DNA of 64,000 nucleotides from Candidatus Kaelpia aquatica (GTDB lineage Bacteria > Omnitrophota > Gorgyraeia > Kaelpiales > Kaelpiaceae): assembly GCA_030765335.1 (NCBI GenBank), contig JAVCCU010000025.1:6784-70783 (forward strand). The letters run 5' to 3'. Below, piece by piece: positions 4,509 to 45,550 of the stretch. Numbering within the stretch: position 1 is the first letter of the stretch; every line of letters starts with the position of its first letter. The notes beneath the pieces are model-generated. The model did not search any database, was not told the origin of the DNA, and saw only the letters and a list, made by a program, of their open reading frames with translations. Both the position numbers and the translations under genes were made by a program.

Positions 4509-4538
4509 TTGACAATAGTATAAGTCTATGGTATAAAT
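4509..4538 (+). promoter_or_regulatory. sigma70-type promoter TTGACA-N17-TGGTATAAAT upstream of the LacI-family gene
   Basis: TTGACA at 4509-4514 and extended -10 TGGTATAAAT at 4529-4538. The same architecture recurs elsewhere in the window. Confidence 0.6.
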
Positions 4539-4542
4539 CTTA

Positions 4543-4569
4543 TGTAAACGATTACAGCAAACGTTTACA
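4543..4569 (+). promoter_or_regulatory. LacI-family type palindromic operator (probable autoregulation)
   Basis: TGTAAACG half-site at 4543-4550 and AGCAAACGTTTACA at 4556-4569, 12/14 to the ideal LacI-family palindrome TGTAAACGTTTACA. Lies between the promoter and the LacI gene start. Confidence 0.5.
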
Positions 4570-4582
4570 TGGGAGATAAGAT

Positions 4583-5593
4583 ATGAAAAGAATAACTATA
4601 AAAGAGGTAGCAGAGAGAGCCGGAGTATCAATTGCTACAGTCTCAAGGGCTTTAAACTCTAGAACAGAGAAATCTGTTAAGCAGGATACTCTAGAGAAGA
4701 TAAAGGATATTATTAGAGAATTAAAATATTTTCCCAATAGATCGGCGAGCTCCCTAAGGCATGGTTTTTCACGAACAATAGGTTTGCCTATGAATTTTAA
4801 GACAGATACTACCTCAGGCTATGTTGGCGAGATAATGAAAGGTGTATTAAGAGGTTTAGACGAGATAGGGTACGACTTAAAGCTTATATCTCAAGAAGAG
4901 TTTGTTTCACTTCAAACGCTGCTTGATAGTGCCGGTGTAGATGGATTAATTATTACCCATGCTTACCATATAGCATACCCTCATCTAGAGGAAGAGTTGA
5001 AAAATAAAAAGTCTTTTCCTCTTGTTGTTATGAATGATTATAATCCTGACTTAGATATCAATCAGGTTTATATAGATACTTATCAGGCAACATGCGATAT
5101 GACGGAGTATGTTATTAAAAAAAACAATTCTGATCTCTATCTTTTAGGCGGAGAGGTATATTCTCAAGATGCTCAAAGAAGAGAGAAAGCTTTTTTAGAT
5201 ACGCTGGCTAAGCATAATATTGATTTTGGCGAAAGTAGAATTTTAAATGGTCATTTTAATGAAACTGGCGGATACGAGATGACCAAACAAATATTTATTA
5301 AAAATCCTGATTTTAAAGGATTGATATATTCTCTTAACGATGCTATGGCGATAGGTGCTTTGCGTGCATTAGGTGAACTCTGCCTCAATTGTCCTAGAGA
5401 TGTTAAAGTTGTTGGCTTTGATGATATAGCTATTTCAGAGCATATGAATCCGCCGTTGACAACTATCCATGTTCCTTTATCTGAGATGGGTTATGAGGCA
5501 ATTAAAATAATATATGGTATTTTCACTGGAGAGATTATAGGTGCTCAAAAGCCCCAGTTTGATTATAGATTGATTCAAAGAGAATCTTGTTAA
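4583..5593 (+). CDS. LacI family transcriptional regulator
   Basis: 336 aa. N-terminal HTH ITIKEVAERAGVSIATVSRALN followed by a periplasmic-binding-protein-like sugar-binding domain. Confidence 0.85.
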   Translation: MKRITIKEVAERAGVSIATVSRALNSRTEKSVKQDTLEKIKDIIRELKYFPNRSASSLRHGFSRTIGLPMNFKTDTTSGYVGEIMKGVLRGLDEIGYDLKLISQEEFVSLQTLLDSAGVDGLIITHAYHIAYPHLEEELKNKKSFPLVVMNDYNPDLDINQVYIDTYQATCDMTEYVIKKNNSDLYLLGGEVYSQDAQRREKAFLDTLAKHNIDFGESRILNGHFNETGGYEMTKQIFIKNPDFKGLIYSLNDAMAIGALRALGELCLNCPRDVKVVGFDDIAISEHMNPPLTTIHVPLSEMGYEAIKIIYGIFTGEIIGAQKPQFDYRLIQRESC

Positions 5594-5641
5594 TTTAAAA
5601 AAGGGGTGCTATTTGTTTAGAATGAAAAGTCAAATGGTAGC

Positions 5642-7543
5642 TTAAATTTTAAGCTGCCATTCAGCATTAACAATATCACGATTTAAAACGCTAGATGCTT
5701 TATTTATCTTTTCTCTTAGATTTTCAGATATTATTCTTTGATTCATATCTCTCAATACTTGATTTGTCATGCGAAAGTTTCTTACAATTGCACCTTCATC
5801 TAAAGATGTCAGGTTAATTATTTTATTGAATTCACTGCCTCTGAGCCAAGCTTGCAATGTTTGCGCGAGTTGAAAATGAGGTTTTAATATTCGTGGATAG
5901 ATTCTGTGTGTTTTTTCTATTTTTTGTATCTTAGCTACGGTATTAGTGATTTTTAATCTCAGTTTTCTCAATCCTTTGTCTAGCTTTATCTCTGTATCTT
6001 TAGCTCTTGATTCTGTAATTATCGCGCATATTACTATTGTTAATTCTATCCAGGATATATTTTCAAAAAATCCTGCTTCATATAGCTCGCCCACTATGAG
6101 CTCATAACCAAATACATTAGACGAGAATTTGCCTTTTAATGTTAGTTCTTGATTTTTTATATAACCTAAGTTTTTCAATAGCTTTAACTTAGAACTAAGC
6201 ATCTTTGCTTCTCTTGACTTCCTATGTCTATTTTGAAAATAGTGGAAACTTTTAGGGTAGATGGTTATTATCTCATCTTGGATATCATTATATAGGTTTA
6301 AGATTGTTGCATAGGATGCGTTAAATTGACTCTTTATAAGTTCGGGTCTATTTCTGGCAATGATCTCCATCTTCTCAATATCGTCTTTAAACGGTTTAAG
6401 TTTTACAAAGACGTAGCCTTCTTCATCTATTCCGCGTCTGCCTGCGCGCCCTGCCATTTGATAAAAATCTCTGGTACTTAGATAATGCGCTCTTCTTTTG
6501 TAATGTTTTGCTATTTCATCGAAACAGACAGTACGTGATGGCATATTGATGCCTAATGCAAATGTCTCCGTTGTAAATATTACCTTAATCATTTTTTTGG
6601 TAAATATTCTTTCAATAATCTCCTTTAGAGGCGGCAATAATCCTGCATGATGGTAGGCGATGCCCCTCTCCAGCAGGTGCAGCATGTCATGGGTAGATGT
6701 ATGCTGTTCTATTTTGAATTTTTTTACCAGCTCTTTATAGAGGTTCTTAATATCTCTCTTTTCTTCTTCGGTTAAAAAATTGAACTGGGAGAGATCTTTT
6801 GCATAATTTTCACATTTTTTTCTTGAGAAACAGAAATATATACAAGGCAAGAAACCATTGGTTTTTAGATGTTTAATTAAAGAGTCTATTCTATTATTTA
6901 AGAAGAATTTACCTCTCTCTCTGGAGCTATATTTTTTTAAATCTTTAAGATTTGAGAAAATCTGATTATCTGCCTGAAAATAGAAATGCAAAGGCACTGG
7001 TCTGACGGCCTCTTCTATCTCTATTATGTTTTGATTATGAACTTTTTTGATCCAATTTTTAAACTCACCCACGTTAGGCAGTGTTGCAGATAGCGCTAAT
7101 ATTCTCATTTCTGGAGGCAGGAATATAATAGATTCTTCCCAGACGGTGCCTCTCTCTGGGTCATCAAGATAATGTACTTCATCAAATATCACCCATTTTT
7201 TATCTTTTAGTTTTTCTGGTTCCTGGAGGAGGTAGTTTCTAAATATCTCTGTTGTCATGATTAAAATAGGGGCTCTGGGATTTATTCTGACATCACCTGT
7301 TATTATTCCGACTTTTTGAGGAAAGTTTTTAGAGAAATCTCTGAACTTCTGATTGCTCAAAGCTTTTATTGGTGCTGTGTATATAAGCCCCTTATTCTCC
7401 TTGAGGCATTTCTCGATTGCATATTCAGCAATGAGAGTCTTGCCAGCGCCTGTTGGTGCTGCCACAATAACGGAATTATTTTTATCAATATGCTCAATGG
7501 CATCTTTTTGGAAGTTATCAAGTATGATATTTTCTGTTAGCAT
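5642..7543 (-). CDS. DEAD/DEAH-box (Ski2-like) superfamily II helicase
   Basis: 633 aa. Walker A APTGAGKT, DEVH box FDEVHYLDD, SAT motif LSATLPN and motif VI QMAGRAGRRG. Confidence 0.75.
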   Translation of the reverse strand: MLTENIILDNFQKDAIEHIDKNNSVIVAAPTGAGKTLIAEYAIEKCLKENKGLIYTAPIKALSNQKFRDFSKNFPQKVGIITGDVRINPRAPILIMTTEIFRNYLLQEPEKLKDKKWVIFDEVHYLDDPERGTVWEESIIFLPPEMRILALSATLPNVGEFKNWIKKVHNQNIIEIEEAVRPVPLHFYFQADNQIFSNLKDLKKYSSRERGKFFLNNRIDSLIKHLKTNGFLPCIYFCFSRKKCENYAKDLSQFNFLTEEEKRDIKNLYKELVKKFKIEQHTSTHDMLHLLERGIAYHHAGLLPPLKEIIERIFTKKMIKVIFTTETFALGINMPSRTVCFDEIAKHYKRRAHYLSTRDFYQMAGRAGRRGIDEEGYVFVKLKPFKDDIEKMEIIARNRPELIKSQFNASYATILNLYNDIQDEIITIYPKSFHYFQNRHRKSREAKMLSSKLKLLKNLGYIKNQELTLKGKFSSNVFGYELIVGELYEAGFFENISWIELTIVICAIITESRAKDTEIKLDKGLRKLRLKITNTVAKIQKIEKTHRIYPRILKPHFQLAQTLQAWLRGSEFNKIINLTSLDEGAIVRNFRMTNQVLRDMNQRIISENLREKINKASSVLNRDIVNAEWQLKI

Positions 7544-7587
7544 TAGTATATATAATATATAATAAATTGAATTCTTTCAAGGTAAAG

Positions 7588-7611
7588 TAGTCTAATTGAC
7601 AAAATAGACTA
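7588..7611 (+). promoter_or_regulatory. inverted repeat TAGTCTA-N10-TAGACTA overlapping a TTGACA -35 box upstream of bcd-etfBA
   Basis: TAGTCTA at 7588-7594, TTGACA at 7596-7601 and TAGACTA at 7605-7611. Operator-like palindrome embedded in a putative promoter. Confidence 0.4.
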
Positions 7612-7656
7612 TTTATATTAACATTAAAGCGCTGATTTAAATTAAGGAGGATTAAA

Positions 7657-15789: not shown

Positions 15790-15837
15790 TAACCTATCTT
15801 TTCTAATTAAATAAATTTAAAAAGTTTGTTTAGCAAT

Positions 15838-15866
15838 TTGACATAGGTTTATTTTATGGTATAAAT
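15838..15866 (+). promoter_or_regulatory. sigma70-type promoter TTGACA-N16-TGGTATAAAT
   Basis: TTGACA at 15838-15843 and TGGTATAAAT at 15857-15866, about 40 nt upstream of the 15908 gene. Confidence 0.6.
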
Positions 15867-15907
15867 ATCATAGATTATAAGGGGCAGCAATTATAGAAAG
15901 ATAATTT

Positions 15908-17410
15908 ATGAAGAAACTAATTATATTATTTATTATTCCAATTCTATTCTTGTCGTTTAGTTCTTATTCTAACTCTGAGGATTTGGAGCAATGCCCACTT
16001 GTTTTGCCGAGCATTACTTCTGGTGAATATTCAAAAGTTTTTTCGGGTAACGCGTTTAACAAGAGACTAAACGAGATATTGTTAAGTCAACAATTAAATG
16101 AAATAAATTCCGAAACGCTTTATAACTCTTATCTAATTCTGGCTATTGAAGGTCTTAATGGTATGGTCGAGCAAAATACAGGCTTGCCATATGATGTAGT
16201 AAGAGTAGGAGAAGGAAATGAACTAATACCTGTAGATAAAAAAGTAAGCGGATTGGAAATTGGTTTGCAGATATTGAATTTAGTTATCCAAAGAGATTTA
16301 GAAATTATGACAGATGATCAAGTTTTATTAAAAATGGATATTGTTTTAAATTCCATAGATAAAGCAGCGAAAAAAAACGGTTTTCTTTACGATTTTGTGT
16401 CTTTACCCAGTCTTAATAAACATAAACTGAGTAACGTTTCAGATGTGTTTAACAGCGGTTATTTGGCAGCAGCTTTAATGATAGCAAATCAAGCGTTTGA
16501 AGGAACTGTAGTTAGCGATAGATGTCAGTTGATTTTAGATGAAATGGATTTTAATTTCTTTTATTCCAATAATGGCCAGTTGTACGGCGATTCTAATAAA
16601 GGATATAGCGTCGGGCAGTTTGGCAGTGAGGTGCTATTACCTGCAATAGTTGCAACGTCAACAGACAATGTGCCTGATAGTGTCATAGCGCCTAGCGACT
16701 CAATATCGATTTATCGAGAGACATATACTACTAATGAGGGGGAAGAAATTAGTGTTATTCCTGCATGGGGTGGACAGATCTGGACTATACTTATGCCGCT
16801 TCTTTTCTTGGGACCTGAGGTGGAAAATCCTGATACAGGTGAAAATGTTATTGCTGGATTTATAGAGAATGCCAGACGTTGGGTAGAAATTCAGATTGAT
16901 GTAGCAGATAAGCTTGATTTAAATATTTGGGGTTGGTCTCCTTGTGCGGCTGTTTCTTCTAAGTATATTTACGATAGTGAAAATGGAGTTCCTGGTTTAG
17001 AGCAATATGGTAATGCTGGAAATCCGCGCAATAATCCTGTTGCTATATATGTTAGTTTTTTAGCGTTAGGTGTATTGTCTGGGTATGATGTAGCAAGCCC
17101 TCAAATACAAGCTACATTAGAAAATTTAGAAGCAATGATAAGTTTAAATCCAGATGTCAATAATTCAAATTATGGATTCCTAGATTCAATAACACAAGAC
17201 GGGGAAGTTTCACCATTTATATTAGGATTGGATAAAGGCATGGAAGTTATTGGTATGTTCAATGCCTACCGAAGAAGTAGTGGTAATCAGGGAATAGAAG
17301 GTTATTTTTGGCAGTATTTGGAAGAAAACGGAATGACAGATACAGTAAGAGAACTTCTTGGTCAACGTAGTAAAGAAATTTTGACGACAATCGGCGTTGA
17401 GAATATGTAG
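15908..17410 (+). CDS. secreted hypothetical protein (signal peptide; possibly carbohydrate-active, function unknown)
   Basis: 500 aa. N-terminal signal peptide MKKLIILFIIPILFLSFSSYS. No motif I can assign. Inserted between argB and pckG with its own strong promoter. Confidence 0.5.
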   Translation: MKKLIILFIIPILFLSFSSYSNSEDLEQCPLVLPSITSGEYSKVFSGNAFNKRLNEILLSQQLNEINSETLYNSYLILAIEGLNGMVEQNTGLPYDVVRVGEGNELIPVDKKVSGLEIGLQILNLVIQRDLEIMTDDQVLLKMDIVLNSIDKAAKKNGFLYDFVSLPSLNKHKLSNVSDVFNSGYLAAALMIANQAFEGTVVSDRCQLILDEMDFNFFYSNNGQLYGDSNKGYSVGQFGSEVLLPAIVATSTDNVPDSVIAPSDSISIYRETYTTNEGEEISVIPAWGGQIWTILMPLLFLGPEVENPDTGENVIAGFIENARRWVEIQIDVADKLDLNIWGWSPCAAVSSKYIYDSENGVPGLEQYGNAGNPRNNPVAIYVSFLALGVLSGYDVASPQIQATLENLEAMISLNPDVNNSNYGFLDSITQDGEVSPFILGLDKGMEVIGMFNAYRRSSGNQGIEGYFWQYLEENGMTDTVRELLGQRSKEILTTIGVENM

Positions 17411-17461
17411 TATTTTTATATAGTTTTTTCAAATTTATCTTTTTGCAAATATAAAGTGTGC

Positions 17462-17489
17462 TTGTTTTTTAAGACCTTTCTAGTATAAT
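17462..17489 (+). promoter_or_regulatory. putative promoter TTGTTT-N16-TATAAT upstream of pckG
   Basis: TTGTTT at 17462-17467 and TATAAT at 17484-17489. RBS GGAGGA precedes the pckG ATG. Confidence 0.4.
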
Positions 17490-27042: not shown

Positions 27043-27057
27043 AATTTTGGGGGTGAC

Positions 27058-27165: not shown

Positions 27166-27325
27166 ATTACAGGAGGTAGAAGGGCTTGAGAAAAAGATTA
27201 TGAAGAGAACAAAACTTAACAACATTATTCTCTGTATTATCGGTGCTCAGGAGGGGCATTGTCAAGATAGATTAAGGAATTCAAATAAACGGGTGTTTAA
27301 TTTGGTAAAAAAGGAGGAAGTTAAA

Positions 27326-27805
27326 ATGAATAAAGCATTAGTAATTCTTGTGTTAGGCATGTTGTTTATAACTCAGCTTGCATCTGCAGCAATTAATCAA
27401 ACAGGTCAAATCGCAATAAGTTTAAGGTTGGGTCAGGTGATTAACGAACGAGCTGATCAGGAAATTGAAGGTGCTCGCGAAATAAATGGAATCGCTGCAG
27501 GTATTGACGCTGGTACCATAGCGGTAACCGATAGAACTGTAGCAGAAAACGAAGGAGCGGCTTTTCTTGATTTTGTAAATAAAGTAAATGGTTTAAGCGA
27601 TGAAAAAACTAATGATGCAGTTGAAATTAAGCAATGTGCAGCTATGGCATTGAATGGTTCTGAATTAAGTTTGCCAGCTGAAGCAGTCGATGTGTTGGCT
27701 GGTAAGTGGTCTGATAATCTTGATAGCATGCTTGAGGAATTACAGAAAGCAGATCAGGTGTTAGACGATGATACGATGACTGCAGTTATGAATATACAAG
27801 AATAA
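27326..27805 (+). CDS. small secreted acidic hypothetical protein
   Basis: Start placed at ATG 27326 (AAGGAGG 8 nt upstream). Signal peptide MNKALVILVLGMLFITQLASA. The ORF track's extension to 27200 has no RBS and is not signal-like. Confidence 0.5.
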   Translation: MNKALVILVLGMLFITQLASAAINQTGQIAISLRLGQVINERADQEIEGAREINGIAAGIDAGTIAVTDRTVAENEGAAFLDFVNKVNGLSDEKTNDAVEIKQCAAMALNGSELSLPAEAVDVLAGKWSDNLDSMLEELQKADQVLDDDTMTAVMNIQE

Positions 27806-27816
27806 ATATTACGGAT

Positions 27817-27846
27817 GCTGGAGGCCTAAATAGGCCTCCAGCTTAA
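27817..27846 (+). terminator. GC-rich hairpin (possible terminator/attenuator)
   Basis: GCTGGAGGCCT-AAAT-AGGCCTCCAGC perfect 11-bp stem. The downstream tail is not T-rich, so it may be only a partial terminator. Confidence 0.4.
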
Positions 27847-27860
27847 AAGGGGAGAGTATT

Positions 27861-28009
27861 ATGAATAGAAAAAAGAAGATGTTTAAAACAAGGCAGCAAG
27901 AGTCTTTTTTTTATTCAATTAATAAAATCTTAATAAAAGATTTCATTAGCATTGTTGTTGCCTGCTCAATGCTTTTTGCTAATACTATCTGTTTGGCTGG
28001 CGATGAAGC
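27861..28009 (+). repeat. direct repeat copy 1 (149 bp) encoding the shared N-terminal leader
   Basis: Near-identical to 28738-28886. The differences cluster in one ~20 nt patch. Confidence 0.8.
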
Positions 28010-28745
28010 TGAGACAGTACATGCTGATGGTGTATTCACAACTATGCCTATGGCCCCTGCGGCCAGCGATCTTATGGGTGTATCTTTGATTGACCAGACA
28101 GAAATTGTTGCAATAGAGCGGGTAGGAGTATTGCGCATAGAAGAGTTTAATGTAGGTTTTCAAGTAACATATATGCTTAACAATGGTGCCAAGATGCTAC
28201 AAAGTTTAATCGTTTATCTTCCTATTAAGCGTGATGAAAATGAAGCGATAAGTGTCCCCGATGTCTATATCGAAACTCCTGAAATATCTGAAGCTGGGTT
28301 TCGTGGTGAATCTTGGAATATAAATCCTGGAGATGATTCTATTGGTTATCTTGAGATAGTAATTGTTAATAATGGAATTAACCTTATTACAGAGTATGCT
28401 CCGATTACTGATACGGCGATGGGTATTGAATTTACATATGATGGAGCTACGCGTGGCGTTTACAACCATGACCTTGATGATATTGATATGCTTAATCAAT
28501 GTACATCGATTGTGAAAACATTAAATTTCTTTCTCAATCTCGAAGATTTTGATAGCAACAGTGCTAGCCATAGCGTTGAAAATCCTTCGATTGATAATCC
28601 TTCGGTTGATAATGAAAGTAACTCAATTTTAGATCATTTTCAAACCTTTGCGTTGCGTTTTTTTCCTGCACTTTTTCTTGGAGGCACTTTAGCTTATGAG
28701 ATATATCTCCAACAGCAGCGTTGGATTAGGAGGAGTAATGAATAG
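27861..28745 (+). CDS. hypothetical protein with conserved basic N-terminal leader (MNRKKKMFK...ICLAGDEA)
   Basis: 294 aa. Shares its first ~50 aa almost exactly with the next gene. The rest is unique, with a PSIDNPSVDN repeat near the C-terminus. Confidence 0.55.
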   Translation: MNRKKKMFKTRQQESFFYSINKILIKDFISIVVACSMLFANTICLAGDEAETVHADGVFTTMPMAPAASDLMGVSLIDQTEIVAIERVGVLRIEEFNVGFQVTYMLNNGAKMLQSLIVYLPIKRDENEAISVPDVYIETPEISEAGFRGESWNINPGDDSIGYLEIVIVNNGINLITEYAPITDTAMGIEFTYDGATRGVYNHDLDDIDMLNQCTSIVKTLNFFLNLEDFDSNSASHSVENPSIDNPSVDNESNSILDHFQTFALRFFPALFLGGTLAYEIYLQQQRWIRRSNE

Positions 28746-28886
28746 AAAAAAGAAGATGTTTAAAGCAAGGCAGCAAGCATATTTTTTGTATTTAATTAAT
28801 AAAATCTTAATAAAAGATTTCATTAGCATTGTTGTTGCCTGCTCAATGCTTTTTGCTAATACTATCTGTTTGGCTGGCGATGAAGC
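28738..28886 (+). repeat. direct repeat copy 2 (149 bp) encoding the shared N-terminal leader
   Basis: Near-identical to 27861-28009. Confidence 0.8.
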
Positions 28887-31221
28887 AGTTGCGGATGTTG
28901 GAAAAACGGTTTTGCCGGAATTACGCGGTACCCTAGAAGATATTGCGGAATGTTTTGGTCGAGCAATAACCACAGATGATGTTACTGTAATCGAAAGAGG
29001 TGGAGAACTAGGTAACTTGCCATTTTTAAGTGAATTAGATTTACCTAATTATCTTAGTGAAGGTGCTCTCGGTAATTTACCTATTGAGATAAGGGACTAT
29101 AGTCTCGGAGACCTTAGTTTAAGTTCTATAGCTGGCATTGAAAGCAATCATCAGAGTACATTAGCGTGTACGAGAAATGGTGAACCAGAGTGGGCAATTA
29201 GGCGTAGCGTTAAAGATGGAGAAGTAAGCTTTACTGTTATGTGGGAAGAAGAGGGTGAGTATACAGAGTTGGCAGTTGATGCAGACGGCACTATAAGAAG
29301 AGTAATGCATGTAAGAACTTCTGGAGATTATAGAGGAGTATATGTTTATGAAAGTGATGATCCTGAAGGTTATGGACAGATTTTAATATCTGATTGGGAT
29401 AATTCAATGGCTAACCCAGCTAACCATAATCTCCCTTATACAGAAGAGGTTCAGGATAGATTTGATAATTATTTGGATTATCTGCCTTCTGTTGAAGAAT
29501 TTTTCAGCGATACGGCGACTTACATAGCAGAGACACCAGAAGAAGATAGAGTTAATTCCGATTTAAATGTTAGGGCAATTCCATACATTGTTTGGAATGA
29601 AAATATGGTAGATGATACTCCTGCTGATGCATTTGTGCACTCAGGGGGCACAGTGGTGTTTGCTCAAGTCGACATTGATGTATCTAAAGCGGAAGCTTTT
29701 AAATCAATCATGGATGAATTTTACAGATCTCTTGAGATTCTTGCAGGAGAAGAAGGAGGAGCAGGAGGAAGCGCAGTCGACCCTACTGTAGATGCTCAGG
29801 TAGCTTCTGAGTGGATAGGAGAATTTGCACATGATGCATTAGGAGAGGCTTTTGAAATATATGGAGTTGCAGGTGCTATGATGGCAGCCGTTCTTGATAC
29901 CTGGGCAGTTGCTACGAGTAGCTTTAGATTTTGTTTTGATTTTACCAAAGCTTATGAAACGTATACACCTGTAGTAGTTGATCCTGTGACCCTAAACTAT
30001 TACTTTGATACACCAGAAATTGATGCAACTCAGCCGCTGGATTTCAGTGATCAAGATTTTGTTGCGGGTCTATTCGGAGGCCATCTAGAAGCTGGCAATA
30101 TTGATCAAAGTGAATATGATGCCATTTTAGCGCAATATGAGTATTTCCGTCTTCTATCTTTGGATTATAACGATTCAGCTTTTGGTGAAGCTTTTGGTAC
30201 TCCAGTAGCATTCGATCCAGTTAATTATGGTGAACAGGTTGAGGTATATGTTAGCGATTTTAGAGATAATGGTAATATAGGTGCGCTAGAAAATCTTGCA
30301 GAAAGAATGGGACTGTATAAGTATGCATTTCTTACTTGGCTTGAGAAACGATATCCCCAGTTCTTGGTTGATGACGGCACTGCTATAACTGCAGGTCAGA
30401 TTAGTTTTTCTCCAAAATGGGCTCAGTTTGATGTGGCCGATGCGCTTGGTCTAGTAGCTACTATCTATACTCTTAGAGTCGAGGCGCTTAGCATGCTAGG
30501 AGGTGTATTAAAAGGAGCAGGTTGGGTTGCTAATAAGGCATCTTGGGTAAAGGTGGCTCAAGCACTAAATACATATTCCGCTTCTCTTAATGGAGCAGCT
30601 CTTACATATGCTGGATTTAGTGAATACGCCGCTCTCCGGGGTATAAGCGAGCACAAGATTTTAACAGCATTAGGCTTTGCCCCAGGGACAGGAGCTGCTT
30701 ACGGGCTTATAAGCAGGGCTGTATATTTCTCATTAGTTGGGCCTGCAACACAAGCTCTCAATGGCGATCCTATGCCTGAAACATTTCAGAGTTATCTTTA
30801 TGGTATTGGCGATCAGTTTGCAACCGGTGTTATATATTCGGGTATGTTTGGCTATGTTATGCCTCTTATGCAAGGGGGAGCTGGAGGTTCTATATTGCTT
30901 GCAAACTTAAAAAACCAAGCGATGTTTTGGGTATCAGAGATATATTTAGAAGAATACTTGCTTCAAAAAGCAGCAGAAACCATACATGATAGATATGATC
31001 CTAGGGGTTGGGATACAGCTGTTTTGTGGGATAAAGAATTTTATGGCAATTTGGCTGAAATATTTAATCCTTTGGAGATAATGATGTTGATTGGGACAGA
31101 TATAAAATCAGGCACTCATGGTGGAAGAAATACTGTACTAGCTGTGGGAGGTCTGTATGCTTTAGGATTAATAGTTGAAGGTTTGGAGCGAGCAACAGGC
31201 GTAAAGCTTTTTGGAGGTTAA
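28738..31221 (+). CDS. large hypothetical protein with the same N-terminal leader; Gly/Ala-rich hydrophobic C-terminal region
   Basis: Start at ATG 28738 (AGGAGG 4 nt upstream), overlapping the upstream gene's stop. About 827 aa. The C-terminal ~250 aa are rich in G/A with GxxxG-like motifs. Confidence 0.55.
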   Translation: MNRKKKMFKARQQAYFLYLINKILIKDFISIVVACSMLFANTICLAGDEAVADVGKTVLPELRGTLEDIAECFGRAITTDDVTVIERGGELGNLPFLSELDLPNYLSEGALGNLPIEIRDYSLGDLSLSSIAGIESNHQSTLACTRNGEPEWAIRRSVKDGEVSFTVMWEEEGEYTELAVDADGTIRRVMHVRTSGDYRGVYVYESDDPEGYGQILISDWDNSMANPANHNLPYTEEVQDRFDNYLDYLPSVEEFFSDTATYIAETPEEDRVNSDLNVRAIPYIVWNENMVDDTPADAFVHSGGTVVFAQVDIDVSKAEAFKSIMDEFYRSLEILAGEEGGAGGSAVDPTVDAQVASEWIGEFAHDALGEAFEIYGVAGAMMAAVLDTWAVATSSFRFCFDFTKAYETYTPVVVDPVTLNYYFDTPEIDATQPLDFSDQDFVAGLFGGHLEAGNIDQSEYDAILAQYEYFRLLSLDYNDSAFGEAFGTPVAFDPVNYGEQVEVYVSDFRDNGNIGALENLAERMGLYKYAFLTWLEKRYPQFLVDDGTAITAGQISFSPKWAQFDVADALGLVATIYTLRVEALSMLGGVLKGAGWVANKASWVKVAQALNTYSASLNGAALTYAGFSEYAALRGISEHKILTALGFAPGTGAAYGLISRAVYFSLVGPATQALNGDPMPETFQSYLYGIGDQFATGVIYSGMFGYVMPLMQGGAGGSILLANLKNQAMFWVSEIYLEEYLLQKAAETIHDRYDPRGWDTAVLWDKEFYGNLAEIFNPLEIMMLIGTDIKSGTHGGRNTVLAVGGLYALGLIVEGLERATGVKLFGG

Positions 31222-31225
31222 TAGA

Positions 31226-33154
31226 ATGAAGATTAATATGAGATATAATACAATTTTAATAATCACTATAGGGATGTTTTATACTATGGTTGCCTTAGAG
31301 TGTTCCGGGGCGGAGAATAATTTTTTAGATACATCTTCACTTTTCCGCTCTTTTGGCTCTGTTGTTCAAGCCGAGATTATGCTTCCTTTTAGTTCAGACG
31401 GTTCTGTTGTTGCAGATAATACTGAAAACGATGTTCCAGCAGAAGATTTGCTTTTTGCTTCAAATATAATCGAAATGTTTATAGAGGGTTCATCATTAGC
31501 GGATCTTGGCCTGGATGCATCCCAAGTCGAGCTCCTACAGTTATATTTTCCTGCATCGTTTGCTCTTATGCCATTTGCGCAAGAAAGGCCATTGAGTTTT
31601 TTGAACCCCGTCGTTTTATATGATGGCTCAAGACGCATTATTATAACTGAATCTATAGAAAGAGAGCCGATGCGTATTGATGATGCATGGGAAATGGAAT
31701 CCGTTAACGCTATCTTTGTTAATGTCAGGGATGTAGATGTTGATAGCGGGGCAATCATATACAGTACGTATGCATTTAAAGCCGAAGATTTTGACTTTTA
31801 TTATGGCAACAGCGTAGATGCGATTTTATCTTCTTTGGAGGGGAGAGTACCATATGCAATGCAATCTTACATATATAACCAGGATGATGGTTTATTTGAT
31901 GTAGAGGCTGCTTATTTTTCAGAAGCAGGAATCGACATTATTCAACAGGGAAGAGTATCACTTCATGAAGATGGTTTTGTTTGGTCTGCTGCTGAAGGAT
32001 CTTTTAAATTTTATTTTGATGAATCAAACAGTACGCTTAATATAGAAAATTATTTGCTTGATGAAATGATTAGTTCTACAGCTATTCATTGTGACGAAGA
32101 TTCTGGAAGTATAATAATAAAAGAAGGTGATTATGAAATCATCATATCTGATGTTGAGTTTTCACAATCTTTATACGATGGATCTATTGTAGCATATGGA
32201 GATGATGATGGATCAATACAAGATGGTGTATTTACTTATTATGAGATTAAGCATTGGACAACTATCATGAAGAATGATGAGTTGGTTGAATCTTGGTATG
32301 ACATATCTCATACTGCAAACGATTCTTCTTATAGAATTAAGATTTATTCTCAGAGCGCTGATAGTTCCTCCCCAGAATTTTATGCTCTTCAATATCAGGA
32401 AATAGGAGACGATGCTGCTTCTATTCGTAAATATGCTATTGAGCAAGACGAAGAAGAAGGCTTGTTGTATCGTAAGGTTTTTCATGTTTGGGATAGTTCC
32501 TATGCTCCAGGCAGTAGTTCTAGAATGTATTATATTGAAGATACGCCTGAAGATTGGCAAAATGCAAGCTGGTTTTTGCAAAGCGTTATCGATGAGCATT
32601 GTCAGCTTATATGTCAATCCGATACTGTTGTTTCTGCGGGAAAGGATGGTGATATTGTTATAACAAATAATGCATTTTACAACAGCGTCACTATAACAAG
32701 TGATTATGACGAGAGTATTCCTGGAGGGTTTCTTCAGCTTATAGAGAGTTACAGAGAATATCTATCCTCTAACCATCTTTTGAGTCGACCTGAGGTTGAA
32801 GAGGTTATAAATATAACCACTACCAAGGTGTTGTATCAAGATATTCGTTTGCCATATACGAGTCAGTTTTTAGAAATGATAGATAAAAATACAGGCTCAA
32901 ATCATCTTAGTAGTTTAGAAAATAAATCCGAGATTAAGATAAATATTGTCAATGAGGTTGCACGAGCATATCTAGAAAGAGGTATAAGTTTCTTTGGTTC
33001 TGCTTGGTCTTTACCTTCAGGGTTTACTCAGTTTTCTTTCGAATTTAGAAGCCTTATTCATAATACAGTTGTTCCTGAGTTGCAGGGCATGGTCCCTTAT
33101 GAATGGGATTATGACGAGGGGATACTAATTTTGTATCCTGATAGTGATAGTTAA
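31226..33154 (+). CDS. secreted highly acidic hypothetical protein
   Basis: Start at ATG 31226 (GGAGG upstream). Signal peptide MKINMRYNTILIITIGMFYTMVALECSGA. About 642 aa, D/E/S-rich, no recognisable domain. Confidence 0.5.
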   Translation: MKINMRYNTILIITIGMFYTMVALECSGAENNFLDTSSLFRSFGSVVQAEIMLPFSSDGSVVADNTENDVPAEDLLFASNIIEMFIEGSSLADLGLDASQVELLQLYFPASFALMPFAQERPLSFLNPVVLYDGSRRIIITESIEREPMRIDDAWEMESVNAIFVNVRDVDVDSGAIIYSTYAFKAEDFDFYYGNSVDAILSSLEGRVPYAMQSYIYNQDDGLFDVEAAYFSEAGIDIIQQGRVSLHEDGFVWSAAEGSFKFYFDESNSTLNIENYLLDEMISSTAIHCDEDSGSIIIKEGDYEIIISDVEFSQSLYDGSIVAYGDDDGSIQDGVFTYYEIKHWTTIMKNDELVESWYDISHTANDSSYRIKIYSQSADSSSPEFYALQYQEIGDDAASIRKYAIEQDEEEGLLYRKVFHVWDSSYAPGSSSRMYYIEDTPEDWQNASWFLQSVIDEHCQLICQSDTVVSAGKDGDIVITNNAFYNSVTITSDYDESIPGGFLQLIESYREYLSSNHLLSRPEVEEVINITTTKVLYQDIRLPYTSQFLEMIDKNTGSNHLSSLENKSEIKINIVNEVARAYLERGISFFGSAWSLPSGFTQFSFEFRSLIHNTVVPELQGMVPYEWDYDEGILILYPDSDS

Positions 33155-33320
33155 GTTAATGAGTAAAAAGGTTTTATTTGTGTATAGCCGTGCTCAGAAT
33201 TTTAGAAGAATCATTAGTCTCTTAGTGTACTTAGTGGTACAATAATTTCAAATTTAAAAGAAAAATTGAATCTGTATTGTTTATTGAATTTTGATATTTT
33301 TTTAGAACAATGATATTGTT

Positions 33321-34709
33321 ATGAAAATAAATGCATTATTTTTTGTTGCTATAGTTTGTTTTTTTATAAATTTAAAATTTGCTCATAGCTCCCAAAATAC
33401 TCAAGAATATAAAGTGCTTTTGGAAGAGTATGGTTTGAATTCATACCTCACGACAGATAATATAGATAGGTTGCAAGATTTTTCCAAATATGCAAAGTCT
33501 AAAGGAAAATTGCTAGACCTTTATCTGTTAAATTATTCTGAATTCCTAAAATTGTGTAAGAGCAATTTCTTTTTTACCATAGATGAAGAAGAGCCTAGTC
33601 AAGTATGCTTTTATGATAAAGAGATAGATGATATTGATAAACTCTACAATGCTTGTGGTGGATATATTGTTTCTCTCCCATTGGTAAATATAGTAGCACG
33701 GCATGTTTACCAAGATAGCAAAGGTAGTCTATCCCAAAATAACATTTTTGTAATATATCTTTTGCACGAAGGTGTCAATTTTTCTTTATTGCAACATTTA
33801 TTGGATAATATTATTGAAAAAGCAGGAGGGCCTTCTGCAGTTGTTTATATAGATGAGCTTGGGTTAATACCGGAAGACTCTGTCAATAGGTATAGCCAGG
33901 CTTACAAGATAAGCGAAAAAGAATCATTCGAAAAAATAAAAAATTCTCTTAAGAACGATATAAAATCAATAAGTATGGGCCATACTATTTATGATTCAAA
34001 CAAGCTTTATGCTCAGATATATAGCTATTTCGCAAAACATAAAATCGACTCTAATATGGAAGATCTTTCTTATGATAATTGGAAAAATATAGTTGCATTT
34101 GATAAGTTGAATTTATGGAGAAAAAGTGCGCGTTTGTTTTTAATGGGTGCGGTGAGAGCATGTATAGAATCTTCTCAAGAGTTTGTGTTTGGATTCATGT
34201 TGTACAATAATATAATGCGTGATGCTAATTTTTCAAATCAACTAAAAGCATTATTGTCTGATAAAAGTGGCACTACATTAATTACTATCCGTGGTCTTGG
34301 TCATTTTGGATTTGAAAAAAAATTGATAGAGGATGCAAATGTAAGTGTTTGTATTTTAGGCGACGAAGGAGACTCTTTCTTTACGCTAACAGCGCTCCGT
34401 GAAAGGTATATGATTTATCAAGTTAATGAAGTGATTTTAAGTAATGAAGAGGAAGATAGATTGCTATTAAATAGCGTACTTAGTTTTCTTATGTTTAATT
34501 ATTTGATAAAATATGGGATAGAAGACAATTACTATGATGCAATGAAAAGTACGATAGCATTATTAACGCCTCTATCTTTAGCACAGCTATATGCACTTCA
34601 AAGCAAACTATTTTATGAGTTGCAGGCAGGAAATTTCTCTAAAAATAATATCTATGAATTTATTTACAATTGGTGTAAAAATCAAACATTTATAAAAGAA
34701 GAGAACTAA
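33321..34709 (+). CDS. secreted hypothetical protein (very AT-rich gene)
   Basis: 462 aa. Signal peptide MKINALFFVAIVCFFINLKFAHS. Composition markedly more AT-rich than its neighbours. Confidence 0.5.
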   Translation: MKINALFFVAIVCFFINLKFAHSSQNTQEYKVLLEEYGLNSYLTTDNIDRLQDFSKYAKSKGKLLDLYLLNYSEFLKLCKSNFFFTIDEEEPSQVCFYDKEIDDIDKLYNACGGYIVSLPLVNIVARHVYQDSKGSLSQNNIFVIYLLHEGVNFSLLQHLLDNIIEKAGGPSAVVYIDELGLIPEDSVNRYSQAYKISEKESFEKIKNSLKNDIKSISMGHTIYDSNKLYAQIYSYFAKHKIDSNMEDLSYDNWKNIVAFDKLNLWRKSARLFLMGAVRACIESSQEFVFGFMLYNNIMRDANFSNQLKALLSDKSGTTLITIRGLGHFGFEKKLIEDANVSVCILGDEGDSFFTLTALRERYMIYQVNEVILSNEEEDRLLLNSVLSFLMFNYLIKYGIEDNYYDAMKSTIALLTPLSLAQLYALQSKLFYELQAGNFSKNNIYEFIYNWCKNQTFIKEEN

Positions 34710-34871
34710 TCCTTTGGAATTATTTTTGCATCACTCACCAAGTTTTATTAAGCAGTTGTTGTAATTATACGAACATAGGCTGGGTTTCGTTAAAAAAACT
34801 AAATCAAGTGATTCTATTGTTTTTTTTGTTTACTTTTTTACCCCCATAACTTTAAAAAGTAGTGATAAAAT

Positions 34872-34901
34872 TTGACAGCACTTATTTTGTATGGTACAAA
34901 T
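34872..34901 (+). promoter_or_regulatory. sigma70-type promoter TTGACA-N17-TGGTACAAAT
   Basis: TTGACA at 34872-34877 and TGGTACAAAT at 34892-34901, upstream of the PilZ gene. Confidence 0.5.
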
Positions 34902-34958: not shown

Positions 34959-35306
34959 TTGAACTACGATGGAATGGAAAGAAGGCAGTGGACTCGGGTC
35001 GATATGAATGTTCCCCTTAAATTCAGAGAAGTAGGTGAATTCAGCCGTTCTCCGCTTGATTCAGAGACAAGAGATATAAGTGAAGGTGGCATAAGATTTG
35101 CGACTGATAAGTTTCTTCCAAAAGATAGTAAGCTCGTTATAAACATAGATTTCCATGATATTCCAGCTGTTAAAGCAACTGCTAAAGTTTCTTGGTCGGT
35201 AAGAGATTCTCATACCAGCATGTATGAGATAGGTGTTGAGTTTGATACTATTCCTTCAGAAGCAAGAGTTCAACTTTCCAATATCGTCAGAAAAAACTTA
35301 AATTAA
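34959..35306 (+). CDS. PilZ domain protein (putative c-di-GMP receptor)
   Basis: 115 aa. RRQWTRV (RxxxR) and DISEGGIRF (DxSxGG) PilZ motifs. TTG start 7 nt after AAGGAG. Confidence 0.7.
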   Translation: MNYDGMERRQWTRVDMNVPLKFREVGEFSRSPLDSETRDISEGGIRFATDKFLPKDSKLVINIDFHDIPAVKATAKVSWSVRDSHTSMYEIGVEFDTIPSEARVQLSNIVRKNLN

Positions 35307-36334
35307 GATCTAGATCTATTCTTTCTCTCTAACTCTTTTTTCATCTCCAACTCTTTCAGTCTTTTTCTTCTATCCAAATCGTATTTGTCTATTTTCTTAT
35401 TCAAAGCCTGGCGAGATATTCCAAGCAGATTTGCAACCTTAGATTTATTCCACTTAAGTTCATATAGTATCTCAGTCAATATCTTCTGTTCATATATCTC
35501 AACTACGCCTTTAAGCGTCTTATCTTTTACTGCCACTAGTTTAAGGTTTACTCCTCCAGACCTTAACTTTTCAGACAGGTCGCTGGGCAGTATATGAGGC
35601 CCCTCTGATAGTATTACAGCTCTCTCTATCTCATGCTCTAATTCTCGTATATTGCCCGGCCAGTCATACTCTAGGAGATATTTTATTGCATCTGGCACCA
35701 TGTTTTTTATGGATTTCTTATCATTCTTATCGGCATATAGTCGCAGGAAATGCTCTGCTAAGACCGGGATGTCGTCTCTCTTGTCTCTTAGCGGTGGAAT
35801 TGGGATATCTATGACACAAAGCCTGTAAAAGAGGTCTCTTCTAAACCCGCCTCTCTCTACCTCTTTTTCCAGATTTCTATTTGTTGCTGCTACTATTCTT
35901 ACATCTACAGATATATCACTTGTTGCTCCGACTCTCTTTATAGTCCCTTCCTGTAAGACTCTTAAGAGCTTAGATTGCAGGCCTGGTGAAACCTCGCTTA
36001 CTTCATCTAAAAAGAAGGTTCCTTTATCGGCTGCTTCAAATAAACCTTTCTTCTCAGCTATTGCTCCGGTAAATGAGCCTCTGATATGACCGAATAGTTC
36101 TGATTCAAGTAATGTCTCAGTTAGGGCTGAGCAGTTAACAGCTATAAAAGGAGCATTTCTTCTTTTGGAGTGATAATGAAGCGCTTTAGCGATCAGCTCT
36201 TTACCTGTTCCTGTCTCACCTCTTATTAAAATCGTACTGTTTGTATTTACAACCTTTTCCATGATTCTGTAGACTTCTTTCATGTGACTGTTTGTACCTA
36301 TTATCTCTGGAAATGGATTCTGATATTCTTCCAT
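35303..36334 (-). CDS. sigma-54-dependent transcriptional activator (AAA+ and Fis-type HTH only; no N-terminal receiver/sensor domain)
   Basis: 343 aa. GETGTGKE Walker A, ESELFGH, the GAFTGA-region variant GSFTGA and a C-terminal HTH. The stop codon overlaps the PilZ gene stop convergently. Confidence 0.85.
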   Translation of the reverse strand: MEEYQNPFPEIIGTNSHMKEVYRIMEKVVNTNSTILIRGETGTGKELIAKALHYHSKRRNAPFIAVNCSALTETLLESELFGHIRGSFTGAIAEKKGLFEAADKGTFFLDEVSEVSPGLQSKLLRVLQEGTIKRVGATSDISVDVRIVAATNRNLEKEVERGGFRRDLFYRLCVIDIPIPPLRDKRDDIPVLAEHFLRLYADKNDKKSIKNMVPDAIKYLLEYDWPGNIRELEHEIERAVILSEGPHILPSDLSEKLRSGGVNLKLVAVKDKTLKGVVEIYEQKILTEILYELKWNKSKVANLLGISRQALNKKIDKYDLDRRKRLKELEMKKELERKNRSRS

Positions 36335-36336
36335 AC

Positions 36337-37683
36337 TTAACTCCTCCTTAACTTTGTAGGCAGTATTTTAAGTCTTTCTCTGTATTTAGCTACTGTCCTT
36401 CTTGCAATAGTGATTCCATCCTCTTTCAAAAGCTGCGTAATCTTATTGTCGCTAAGAGGTTTCTTGGAATCTTCCGCTACAACTATATCTTTTATCTTCT
36501 CCTTGATTAATTTACTTGAAATGCCTTTCACATTGCTTGAGAAGAAATCTCTTAATTCAAATATCCCAGAAGGTGTATCGATATATTTGCCATTTACAGT
36601 CCTTGAGATTGTGGATTCATCTAATCCAGTGCTCTCTGAAACCCTATTTAGAGTTAAGGGTTTGAGTCCGGCCTTTCCCTTTTTAAAGAACTCTTTCTGG
36701 TGATTTATAATAAAATCAGTAATTTTGATTATAGTTTTTCCTCTCTGCTCCATTGCCTGAATAAGCTCTTTCGTTGTTTTAAGCTTATCTTTAAGGTATC
36801 TCTTTGTCTCTTCAGGCGTTGAGGGATCCTTTAATATCTTAAGATACTGCTTATTTATCCTTATTTTTGGAATATCTCTCTTATTGGTTCTAATCTGATA
36901 TTTGCCGTCTGGTGCTATATCTAAAAATACTTCTGGTATTGCATAGTTGGGGAATGCGCTAGTATAATTTCTGCCTGGTTTTGGATCCAAGCTTTTCAGC
37001 ATCTTTAAGAACTCTTCCATCTTCTTATCGGTTATCTTTAGCTCTTTCTCTATCTTCTTGTAATTATGTGTGGCAAGCTCCTCCAGGAACCGCTCTATTA
37101 TCTGCTGGAATATTTTTTCTTTTAACCCTTTCCTTGCAAGCTGTATGGTTAGACATTCTTTTAGATCTCTGGCTCCGATTCCAGCAGGTTCAAAATCCTG
37201 AACTATTTTTAAAATTTGTTCACATTTTTTATTTGAAACTTTTAATTTCTCGGCTATCTCAAGCAGGGCTATTTCAAGATATCCGTTGGGGTTTAAATTT
37301 CCTATTATCTCTTCACCTATTAAAAGATTATTAACGCTTATCCTCTGCATATGGAGCTGTTTTAAGAGGTGTTCTTGGAGTGTCTCAGGTTTTGTGACTA
37401 GACTTTCAATGTGCGCTCTTTTTTTAGCGTCTTCCTGACCAAACTTTTCAGACCTCTTCTCCCAGATATTGTCTTCTTGAAATTCAAATTTCTCTTCATC
37501 GGGTATCTCGGGTACTTTCTCTTCTTCGATCTCAAGAAGCGGGTTCTCTTCGAACTCTTCTTCTAGTTTTTCTTTAAGCTCTGTGATTGGCACTTGAAGA
37601 AGGTTTAATAGCTGCCAGAATTGAGGCAACAGCTTAAGTTTTAGCGCCAAGTGCTGTTCAAGGCGGGGGATCATTCTTTCCAT
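36337..37683 (-). CDS. rpoN: RNA polymerase sigma-54 factor
   Basis: 448 aa. C-terminal RpoN box ARRTVAKYR and an acidic region I/II. Confidence 0.9.
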   Translation of the reverse strand: MERMIPRLEQHLALKLKLLPQFWQLLNLLQVPITELKEKLEEEFEENPLLEIEEEKVPEIPDEEKFEFQEDNIWEKRSEKFGQEDAKKRAHIESLVTKPETLQEHLLKQLHMQRISVNNLLIGEEIIGNLNPNGYLEIALLEIAEKLKVSNKKCEQILKIVQDFEPAGIGARDLKECLTIQLARKGLKEKIFQQIIERFLEELATHNYKKIEKELKITDKKMEEFLKMLKSLDPKPGRNYTSAFPNYAIPEVFLDIAPDGKYQIRTNKRDIPKIRINKQYLKILKDPSTPEETKRYLKDKLKTTKELIQAMEQRGKTIIKITDFIINHQKEFFKKGKAGLKPLTLNRVSESTGLDESTISRTVNGKYIDTPSGIFELRDFFSSNVKGISSKLIKEKIKDIVVAEDSKKPLSDNKITQLLKEDGITIARRTVAKYRERLKILPTKLRRS

Positions 37684-44352: not shown

Positions 44353-44412
44353 ATTTGACGTATATCTAGACGTGTGGTATCTTTGATGTAAGGGAAGGGG
44401 CAAAAATCTATT

Positions 44413-44685
44413 ATGAAAAAGCGTATTTTATTTATTATGTTACTGCTTTTTTTATCTAGTATCTCATTGGATGAATTTCAGAATATTCCGCTGAATTGTT
44501 TCAGGAGATTGAGGGCAGATGGTAATATTAATTTTTATCAGATAGTCCAAAATATCTTAATGGATTTAGAAGGAAGAATTACAAATGTGGACAAGGTTGT
44601 TGTATTTGATGAGCTTCGTTACGGAGTCCATGGTGGTATTTCCTGGAAGACATTGCAAATATGTTTACTGATGAAAATCAAGTGA
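44413..44685 (+). CDS. hypothetical signal-peptide ORF, possibly the 5' part of a frameshifted gene continuing at 44661-45323
   Basis: 90 aa. Signal peptide MKKRILFIMLLLFLSSISL. The downstream ORF in another frame opens right after a stop at 44610-12. Confidence 0.35.
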   Translation: MKKRILFIMLLLFLSSISLDEFQNIPLNCFRRLRADGNINFYQIVQNILMDLEGRITNVDKVVVFDELRYGVHGGISWKTLQICLLMKIK

Positions 44686-45323
44686 TACGTGTAACCAATG
44701 TACCTGTAGATGAGAGTGGAATGATTGCATATCAAACGAATAGTAGTTTGGGGGTGATGTTTCCTGGTCAATTCCGAGTCTGTATAGGTGAAGAATATGC
44801 AAATAAAAGAGCAGATGTATTGTTTTCCAAAGACCAGGGTAATAGCATGGTAGTGTTGCGAGTTGAAATAGATGGACAAATTATTATTGATGAGACGATG
44901 GTTTCATATCTTGTGAATGAAAATGGAATCGAACTTTATGCCCCATCGTGCAGCAATAATGTATTTGGGGTAGAGCCTTTTCAGGATTATTTTTACTTTA
45001 GGTCTAGGAGTTCTGAAGGCGATAATGCCTTGTATATTGTAAATCAGCGTCTTTCTACCAAAGGGGGATTCATTCTTTTCAGTAGAACTTATGAGGAAAT
45101 ACTTTCAGATCAACTTGCTAATGCCGTTGTGGTTGTTAAGGTTGAGCGAGAATCGCAATCCGAGCATGATTTTATAGTTTCGGTGATCGTTGTTGAAGAT
45201 AAGGAAGGTAGGCCTATTTTTGATAAATTCGGCAAATCGATTGTATATCATTTCCGGGGTGTTTTAGAAAGAGATCGGTTTCTGAGCTACTCTCTGGAAT
45301 TAATCAAGGGGTCTGAGTTATAA
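44661..45323 (+). CDS. hypothetical protein (possible 3' part of a frameshifted secreted protein gene)
   Basis: 220 aa with no signal peptide of its own. Overlaps the preceding ORF by 25 nt in a different frame. Confidence 0.4.
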   Translation: MFTDENQVIRVTNVPVDESGMIAYQTNSSLGVMFPGQFRVCIGEEYANKRADVLFSKDQGNSMVVLRVEIDGQIIIDETMVSYLVNENGIELYAPSCSNNVFGVEPFQDYFYFRSRSSEGDNALYIVNQRLSTKGGFILFSRTYEEILSDQLANAVVVVKVERESQSEHDFIVSVIVVEDKEGRPIFDKFGKSIVYHFRGVLERDRFLSYSLELIKGSEL

Positions 45324-45395
45324 TTTTACCAATTCTCATTGTGATATTTGCCTATACTTGCAATTTATTTATATTCCTTTTACAATTGATGGTAT

Positions 45396-45487
45396 GGAGA
45401 GGTGTGAGAGCGGCCGAATCAAAACGACTGGAAATCGTTTGACTTGAGAAATTAGGTCCCTGGGTTCAAATCCCAGCCTCTCCGCCA
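45396..45487 (+). tRNA. tRNA-Ser (anticodon GGA), CCA-encoded
   Basis: Acceptor GGAGAGG...CCTCTCC-G-CCA. Anticodon stem-loop AACGA-CTGGAAA-TCGTT gives anticodon GGA. Long variable arm. T-arm CTGGGTTCAAATCCCAG. 92 nt. Confidence 0.85.
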
Positions 45488-45521
45488 TTAATCCTTCCTC
45501 AAATATAATTTTCTTATCAAT

Positions 45522-45550
45522 TTGACTAGATGTATTTGTATGGTATAAAT
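45522..45550 (+). promoter_or_regulatory. sigma70-type promoter TTGACT-N16-TGGTATAAAT
   Basis: TTGACT at 45522-45527 and TGGTATAAAT at 45541-45550, upstream of the repeat-protein gene. Confidence 0.55.

Follow-up and report, generated by a model that had tools for sequence, protein, structure and literature searches.

A recurrent extended -10 decamer in Candidatus Kaelpia aquatica very likely marks promoters of the sigma-70 TRTG class

In a stretch of 64,000 nucleotides from Candidatus Kaelpia aquatica (Omnitrophota; contig JAVCCU010000025.1, positions 6,784 to 70,783; hereafter the window), a decamer with the features of an extended -10 promoter element recurs at six sites, each preceded by a -35 box. 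Judging from the sequence, these sites are very likely functional and probably strong promoters of an ordinary kind, namely of the sigma-70 extended -10 (TRTG) class, and we think it quite probable that they are read by the housekeeping (group 1, sigma-70/RpoD-type) holoenzyme of K. aquatica. In total, the analysis covered roughly 70 kb from K. aquatica and roughly 100 kb from its close relatives.

Five exact copies of the decamer TGGTATAAAT were found in the window, at 4529, 15857, 27077, 27156 and 45541, all on the plus strand. A variant, TGGTACAAAT, occurs once on the same strand at 34892 and constitutes the sixth site. In dinucleotide-preserving shuffles, the mean number of TGGTATAAAT copies was 0.23 and the maximum 2, giving an enrichment of about 20-fold for the observed number, which was reached in none of the 100 shuffles. 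If one mismatch was permitted, the decamer count was at background level (10 found, 8.7 expected); thus, the signal resides in the exact copies and their placement. That five copies in one species are identical to the letter is partly coincidence. The -35 boxes read TTGACA at four sites (4509, 15838, 27137 and 34872), TTGACT at 45522 and TTGTAT at 27058, and of the spacers that separate them from TATAAA or TACAAA, two measure 17 bp and the other four 16 bp. An earlier note on this DNA had claimed the recurrence of the decamer as well as consensus -35 boxes at canonical spacing, with a weaker box in the case of the decamer at 27077, and our counts bear out both statements.

Non-coding DNA represents 9.4% of the window and holds all six sites. 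Each site is co-oriented with the next gene on the plus strand, the start codon of which lies 30–113 nt downstream. The window as a whole has a G+C content of about 37% and a strong GC skew, and 54 of its 57 genes are on one strand. Outside the block from -35 to -10, the pairwise identity of the six sites is 35% compared to 30% expected from composition; therefore, the sites do not form a repeat family, in agreement with the earlier statement that their surroundings are unrelated. The types of downstream genes were also described correctly: a LacI regulator and a PilZ protein were recognized by Pfam, and three proteins carry a signal peptide and have no Pfam match. No paralogy was found when the downstream proteins were compared with each other, and they share no function either. 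Pfam gave no match for five hypothetical proteins of the cluster at 27–35 kb, nor for the proteins encoded at 15908 and 45581, and a search of the window against Rfam at gathering thresholds yielded no match.

All six predicted promoters have the same anatomy. The promoter of the LacI-regulator gene (4583-5593) spans 4509..4538 (+) and is composed of TTGACA (4509-4514), a 17-bp spacer, TATG (4527-4530) and TATAAA (4532-4537), followed by T. At 15838..15866 (+), TTGACA, a 16-bp spacer, TATGG and TATAAAT precede a variable gene for a secreted protein (15908-17410). Two tandem promoters follow rdgB. The upstream one, P1 (27058..27086, +), combines the weak TTGTAT with a 16-bp spacer, TGTGG and TATAAAT, and the second, P2 (27137..27165, +), which adjoins an operon for secreted hypothetical proteins (27200-34709), has TTGACA, a 16-bp spacer, TATGG and TATAAAT. 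The PilZ gene (34959-35306) is preceded at 34872..34901 (+) by TTGACA, a 17-bp spacer, TATGG and TACAAAT, and the gene of a 172-aa repeat protein in an islet next to tRNA-Ser (45581-46099) is preceded at 45522..45550 (+) by TTGACT, a 16-bp spacer, TATGG and TATAAAT.

Comparing the sites, TG is found one base 5′ of the hexamer and is itself preceded by T and a purine in all six cases (five times TATGG, once TGTGG). Such a TRTG extended -10 element, or “-16 region,” is common in Firmicutes, and 17 bp is the preferred spacer length of sigma-70 promoters (PMC12641261). The -10 hexamer is TATAAA at five sites, agreeing with the consensus at five of six positions, and TACAAA at one, agreeing at four; A occupies position 2 in all of them. 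AT follows directly after the decamer in five of six sites and TA stands directly before it in five of six. Further, the A-tract TTTAAAAAGT occurs in identical form at 15816-15825 and 34851-34860, at an equal offset 5′ of the -35 box, resembling an UP element. A long A-tract is also present at site 27156, and the remaining sites are A/T-rich upstream, as is the background DNA itself. In this way, upstream tract, -35 box, TRTG and -10 hexamer are combined at each site.

We propose that the housekeeping holoenzyme would recognize the A/T-rich tract (probably an UP element), TTGACA, a spacer of 16–17 bp, TRTG and TAYAAA followed by T and A/T-rich DNA; nearly all known recognition elements are thus present at each site. 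Following the established contacts between sigma-70 regions and promoter elements, region 4 of sigma would bind TTGACA, region 3.0 the TG and region 2 TAYAAA, and the alpha subunits would probably bind the A-tracts. The motif, its statistics, placement and conservation, and its occurrence in relatives and at housekeeping genes are shown directly by the sequences; the identity of the sigma factor, the start sites, the promoter strength and the argument on compensation given below are inferences. Transcription is predicted to start about 7 nt after the hexamer, i.e., near 4544, 15872, 27092, 27171, 34907 and 45556, applying the rule that start sites lie about 7 bp after the -10 element (PMC12641261). 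The resulting 5′ leaders of roughly 25–110 nt would belong to the transcripts of the LacI regulator, the variable secreted protein, the secreted-protein operon with its tandem promoters P1 and P2, PilZ and the islet protein. That the islet promoter has the same form is what one would predict if the main polymerase of the host transcribes inserted DNA. The decamer itself would recur because it is close to the preferred extended -10 element of the lineage (TRTGG + TAYAA(A)T), with selection holding each promoter near this optimum.

The LacI gene also has two neighboring operators of the LacI type, TGTAAACGATTACA and GCAAACGTTTACA, which were read from the sequence at 4542..4570 (+) and match the LacI-type pattern TGnAAnCGnTTnCA. 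The operators begin at the predicted transcription start and are nearly invariant in the five lineages compared below. Since both properties point to autorepression, we infer that the LacI gene may repress itself through the adjacent operators.

To follow the sites across relatives, three regions were aligned. The region after rdgB was compared between three Kaelpia lineages, namely K. aquatica, K. imicola (GCA_030765505.1; L239) and L240 (alignment A1). The P1 decamer is invariant in all three. At P2, TTGACA and TATAAAT are invariant, but 6 of the 13 aligned spacer columns vary; TRTG is kept with either A or G as the purine, and one lineage has G at -13, the other two A. The PilZ region was aligned for three Kaelpia lineages and Candidatus Saelkia tenebricola (A2). 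Here, ATAAA(A)TTTGACA and TATG[G/C]TA[C/T]AAATATA are invariant, whereas the spacer and the 5′ untranslated region diverge, and the mean column identity over the aligned region is 69%. The A-tract upstream of the PilZ promoter (34851-34860) is conserved in a relative as well (L248). For the LacI region, five lineages were compared (A3). The -35 box is TTGACA in four of five and TTAACA in K. imicola, TAT of the -10 hexamer is invariant, and the extended -10 elements read TATGGTATAAAT, CATGTTATAAAT, TATGTTATACAT, TATGGTATATTT and TAAGGTATTCTT. The counterpart of site 15857 in the closest relative (L114) is TTGAAA-N14-TGGCATATAT, and the gene behind it shows an identity of only 25%. The 41.6 kb of syntenic sequence that was compared contains one exact decamer in K. 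imicola and four in K. aquatica; for one of the latter (15857), the corresponding K. imicola stretch lies outside the compared sequence. The fixed hexamers and free spacers at orthologous sites are a classic footprint of promoters and indicate that the promoters are old and under selection rather than recent copies. The drift of the decamer at LacI, P2 and site 15857 shows, on the other hand, that the exact decamer is not required.

Several of these regions have features of their own. The intergenic region after rdgB (27043-27325) is 88% identical in the three lineages, which equals or exceeds the conservation of the flanking genes. It contains a fixed block between P1 and P2, AAAATGTTTAAAATGA...AAATTAA, and directly behind P1, 11 nt are deleted in K. 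aquatica. The true start of the first gene in the operon may be ATG 27326 with its good Shine-Dalgarno sequence, as this is also the annotated start in L240; the 5′ leader would then measure about 155 nt. Further downstream, the adjacent genes 27861-28745 and 28696-31221 for secreted hypothetical proteins share N-terminal 50 residues that are 90% identical (27861-28010 and 28738-28887), and the remainder of the two proteins is unrelated. The slot between argB and PEPCK (15790-17475) is hypervariable: the identity to L114 is 85% in its flanks and only the 25% mentioned above in the secreted protein that they enclose. The K. imicola protein in the slot is annotated as GH162-like, and its C-terminal 327 aa, which were compared, have no detectable similarity. 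In the segment 34959-37683, a sigma-54 activator gene and then rpoN lie behind the PilZ gene on the opposite strand, with an overlap of 4 nt between the ends of the PilZ gene and the activator gene. The order PilZ, activator, rpoN is also found in Candidatus Saelkia tenebricola (L246), and the retention of this arrangement hints at a possible functional link between cyclic di-GMP (c-di-GMP) sensing and sigma-54 control.

Related promoter elements are not confined to the six sites. The TGG-extended -10 element TGGTACAAT is located at 33235..33243 (+), 5′ of gene 33321-34709, and has no good -35 box. At 44355..44383 (+), TTGACG, a 17-bp spacer, TGTGG and TATCTT precede the gene starting at 44413, and carB (55092-58295) has a promoter at 55029..55056 (+) with TTGATT, a 16-bp spacer, TGG and TATAAT. 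A TGG-extended -10 element also precedes the dCMP deaminase gene (TGGTATAAT) and glgP (TGATACAAT in K. aquatica, TGGTACAAT in two relatives). The GGDEF gene just 5′ of the window has TATGTTATAAAT, which is of the TAYAAAT form, and plain TATAAT was found at the PEPCK, GT2 and UDP-glucose dehydrogenase genes. In loci of more distant Omnitrophota, TGTGC, TATGC, TGTGT or TATGT is combined with TATAAT and weak -35 boxes in intergenic DNA in front of many genes. Thus, the sampled Omnitrophota loci repeatedly have a TRTG extended -10 element and the Kaelpia loci repeatedly have G at -13, and the decamer sites represent the top-scoring part of a promoter continuum. Within this continuum, consensus -35 boxes pair with TAYAAA plus T, and poor -35 boxes pair with perfect TAYAAT. 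Most simply, the pairing of a strong -35 box with an imperfect -10 hexamer would be read as compensation between promoter elements, in line with the “mix and match” view of promoters (PMC2613000).

A number of observations weigh against the assignment to the housekeeping sigma factor. The usual, though not obligatory, T at hexamer position 6 is missing: in all six sites A is found here, followed by T (TAYAAAT). A generic sigma-70 scan requiring T at this position lists none of the six sites, which it misses because A replaces T; the scan yields numbers near background in this A/T-rich window (79 vs. 64 ± 8, 68 vs. 62 ± 8 and 86 vs. 64 ± 8). Further, the TAYAAAT ending is kept across two genera, which is more than simple drift predicts. 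Position -13 is mostly C or T in the more distant Omnitrophota, making G a habit of the Kaelpia lineage. Finally, TTGACA-N13-TGGTATAAAT was present in 92 phage contigs, compared to at least 120 for a scrambled decamer of the same composition. We treat the missing T as a deviation inside the sigma-70 family, not as exclusion from it. A hexamer register of ATAAAT was considered and rejected, as T would occupy the key second position.

Concerning the phage contigs, a motif count that does not exceed the scrambled control renders raw counts uninformative, and only the position relative to open reading frames (ORFs) discriminates. The share of unique instances located outside ORFs of at least 100 aa was therefore used as a metric. 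In phage contigs, 52% of the decamer motifs and 68% of the canonical TGGTATAATA lie outside such long ORFs, compared to 7% for the scrambled control. In metagenome contigs, the value is 74% for the longer motif, compared to 25% for random positions in metagenome loci. At least 118 metagenome contigs, of gut, marine and freshwater origin, contain TTGAC-N12/13-TATGGTATAAATAT; K. aquatica is absent among the matches listed. Consequently, the TATAAAT form behaves like a promoter in many unrelated contigs, being located for the most part outside long ORFs. In one phage contig (L321, IMGVR_UViG_3300013426_000048), eight exact copies of TTGACA-N14-TGGTATAATA occur on both strands within 12 kb (612-7599).

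The earlier note had left the choice between a housekeeping sigma factor with an unusually strict extended -10 element and a dedicated alternative sigma factor or regulon. Its first proposal holds as far as the housekeeping factor is concerned, given TRTGG and TAYAAAT after a sigma-70 -35 box, TGG at glgP, carB and the dCMP deaminase gene, TRTGnTATAAT in other Omnitrophota, and the conservation of -35 and -10 boxes at orthologous promoters. However, “unusually strict” is overstated, as the decamer drifts at orthologous promoters of close relatives. The second proposal is not supported: the target genes resemble each other neither in sequence nor in function, the motif differs from the sigma-70 consensus by one base only, and the architecture is widespread in phage and metagenome contigs, mostly outside long ORFs. 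A related reading would have TTGACA, TRTGG and TAYAAAT form a separate class that is read by a second, group 2-like factor of the sigma-70 family or that defines a regulon of surface, secreted and c-di-GMP functions, with G at -13 and A followed by T as determinants of selectivity. It is known from E. coli that the base at -13 helps to discriminate sigma-S from sigma-70. The distribution of the two -10 forms would also fit, as TAYAAAT accompanies a strong -35 box at the LacI gene, the variable secreted-protein gene, P1/P2, PilZ, the islet gene and the GGDEF gene, and TAYAAT accompanies a weak one at glgP, carB, PEPCK and the GT2 gene; besides, the TAYAAAT form at PilZ and P1/P2 is retained in two genera. 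Yet the -35 box, the spacing and TRTG are those of the housekeeping consensus, TGG is also found at housekeeping genes, the downstream genes share neither sequence nor function, and a strong -35 box with an imperfect -10 hexamer is what compensation between elements predicts. Moreover, the LacI orthologs shift among TATAAAT, TATACAT, TATATTT and TATTCTT, and -13 changes among G, T and A, so neither the TAYAAAT ending nor G at -13 is obligatory. For these reasons we regard a separate class as unlikely. A similarly low chance is given to a discrete class of UP tract, TTGACA, TRTGG and TAYAAAT in Kaelpia and Saelkia, whose conserved A followed by T and G at -13 would reflect altered -10 recognition by their RNA polymerase or a second sigma-70-family factor. 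If true, such a class would drive genes for secreted, surface and c-di-GMP-signaling proteins apart from the TATAAT promoters of core metabolism.

The remaining explanations are far less probable. The block TATGGTAYAAATAT might serve mainly for the binding of a regulator to DNA, overlapping the -10 element and thereby fixing bases beyond the hexamer, which would account for the conservation of about 4 nt past the hexamer at PilZ (AAATATA) and for TA before and AT after the decamer in five of six sites. We consider this very unlikely, as neither dyad nor direct-repeat symmetry is present in the block, TA ahead of TGG belongs to the TRTG motif, the extra fixed bases are only A or T, as in a melting region, and the block drifts at the LacI orthologs while the LacI operators stay almost perfectly conserved. 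Slightly less credible still is that a mobile promoter cassette or a short repeat spread recently within this genome and gave rise to the sites. One copy is indeed located in the tRNA-flanked islet and one in a hypervariable gene slot, and about 25 nt agree between the site at 34892 and that at 45541, apart from one indel and one mismatch. Nevertheless, the flanks are unrelated (see the identities above) and the spacers differ in sequence and length, and the P1, P2, PilZ and LacI promoters occupy the same positions in other species or genera and thus predate K. aquatica; a mobile cassette is largely refuted by this orthologous conservation. Least probable of all, with hardly any weight, are sigma-54 promoters with TGG as the -24 element, or a chance recurrence of the k-mer. 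rpoN (36337-37683, -) and an enhancer-binding protein gene (35303-36334, -) do lie next to PilZ, and site 27077 reads TGGTATAAATATTGTA, which weakly resembles TGGCAC-N5-TTGC. A -12 GC element at the required spacing is, however, absent from all six sites, which refutes sigma-54, and each has a sigma-70 -35 box. Chance is excluded by the shuffling result and by the placement and orientation of all six sites toward genes.

With recognition by the housekeeping holoenzyme as the favored explanation, the sites can be compared to known systems. “-16 region” sigma-A promoters of Gram-positive bacteria (Bacillus subtilis, streptococci) have the same TRTG, TTGACA at 16–17 bp and an A/T-rich upstream tract, but the Kaelpia host belongs to the Omnitrophota (PVC group), and its sites have G at -13 and TAYAAA plus T instead of TATAAT. 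Extended -10 (TGn) sigma-70 promoters of E. coli share the TG one base 5′ of the hexamer and an apparent compensation between elements; however, they typically lack a good -35 box, whereas the Kaelpia sites combine an UP-like tract, -35, TRTG and -10. Phages with reiterated consensus promoters likewise have near-identical copies within a few kb before unrelated genes, as in the contig described above (L321). In contrast, the Kaelpia sites are chromosomal, except for the islet copy, and are conserved at orthologous positions. Concerning the selectivity of E. coli sigma-S at -13, a non-random base is found in both cases, namely C for sigma-S and G in all six Kaelpia sites, but at orthologous Kaelpia promoters the base changes freely (G, T or A).

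Some further features of the window were recorded. tRNA-Ser(GGA) is encoded at 45396-45487, and its last 19 nt plus two bases (45469-45489) are repeated exactly at 46587-46607. This pair of repeats bounds an islet of 1,118 bp with the gene of the 172-aa protein as its only gene, which contains three tandem repeats of 114 nt (45902-46210). The islet protein (45581-46099) was not found on record in public assemblies. A second segment reaches as far as a degenerate repeat copy at 48843-48863, and its end region of 163 nt (48694-48856) is 80% identical to 46438-46600. The segments at tRNA-Ser look like tandem remnants of integrated elements. At 63448-63530, the release factor 2 gene prfB has the usual layout of a +1 programmed frameshift with the shift site CTT TAA C (UAA), the canonical site being CTT TGA C, and UGA is the stop codon of 16 of the 57 genes in the window. 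The promoter of an acyl-CoA dehydrogenase/ETF operon is located at 7596-7624 (TTGACA-N17-TAACAT), and its counterpart TTGACAATTAnTAAATATATAGTATTTT is almost identical in distant Omnitrophota (L100, L101, L102 and L113), which suggests that a conserved regulator site may overlap this promoter.

The paper that described Kaelpia, a Candidatus Omnitrophota genus, from Ace Lake in Antarctica does not mention promoters or sigma factors (PMC8542988). NCBI lists proteins identical to RdgB and LacI of the window under Candidatus Kaelpia aquatica. Sequence of K. aquatica is present in ENA, JGI and Logan assemblies. Omnitrophota are uncultured and their transcription starts are not known to have been mapped, and in the literature searched we found no description of promoters from this phylum. 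The general picture of bacterial transcription is unchanged by our results, the conserved A at the last hexamer position being the sole unusual detail. For the phylum, the sequences indicate that a Firmicute-like TRTG extended -10 element is probably in use and that the genus Kaelpia would prefer TRTGG with TAYAA(A)T. Such a motif would help in choosing promoters for heterologous expression, and it would be useful for annotating operons and regulator sites in metagenome-assembled genomes of Omnitrophota, such as the LacI gene with its putative autoregulation and the secreted-protein operon with its tandem promoters.

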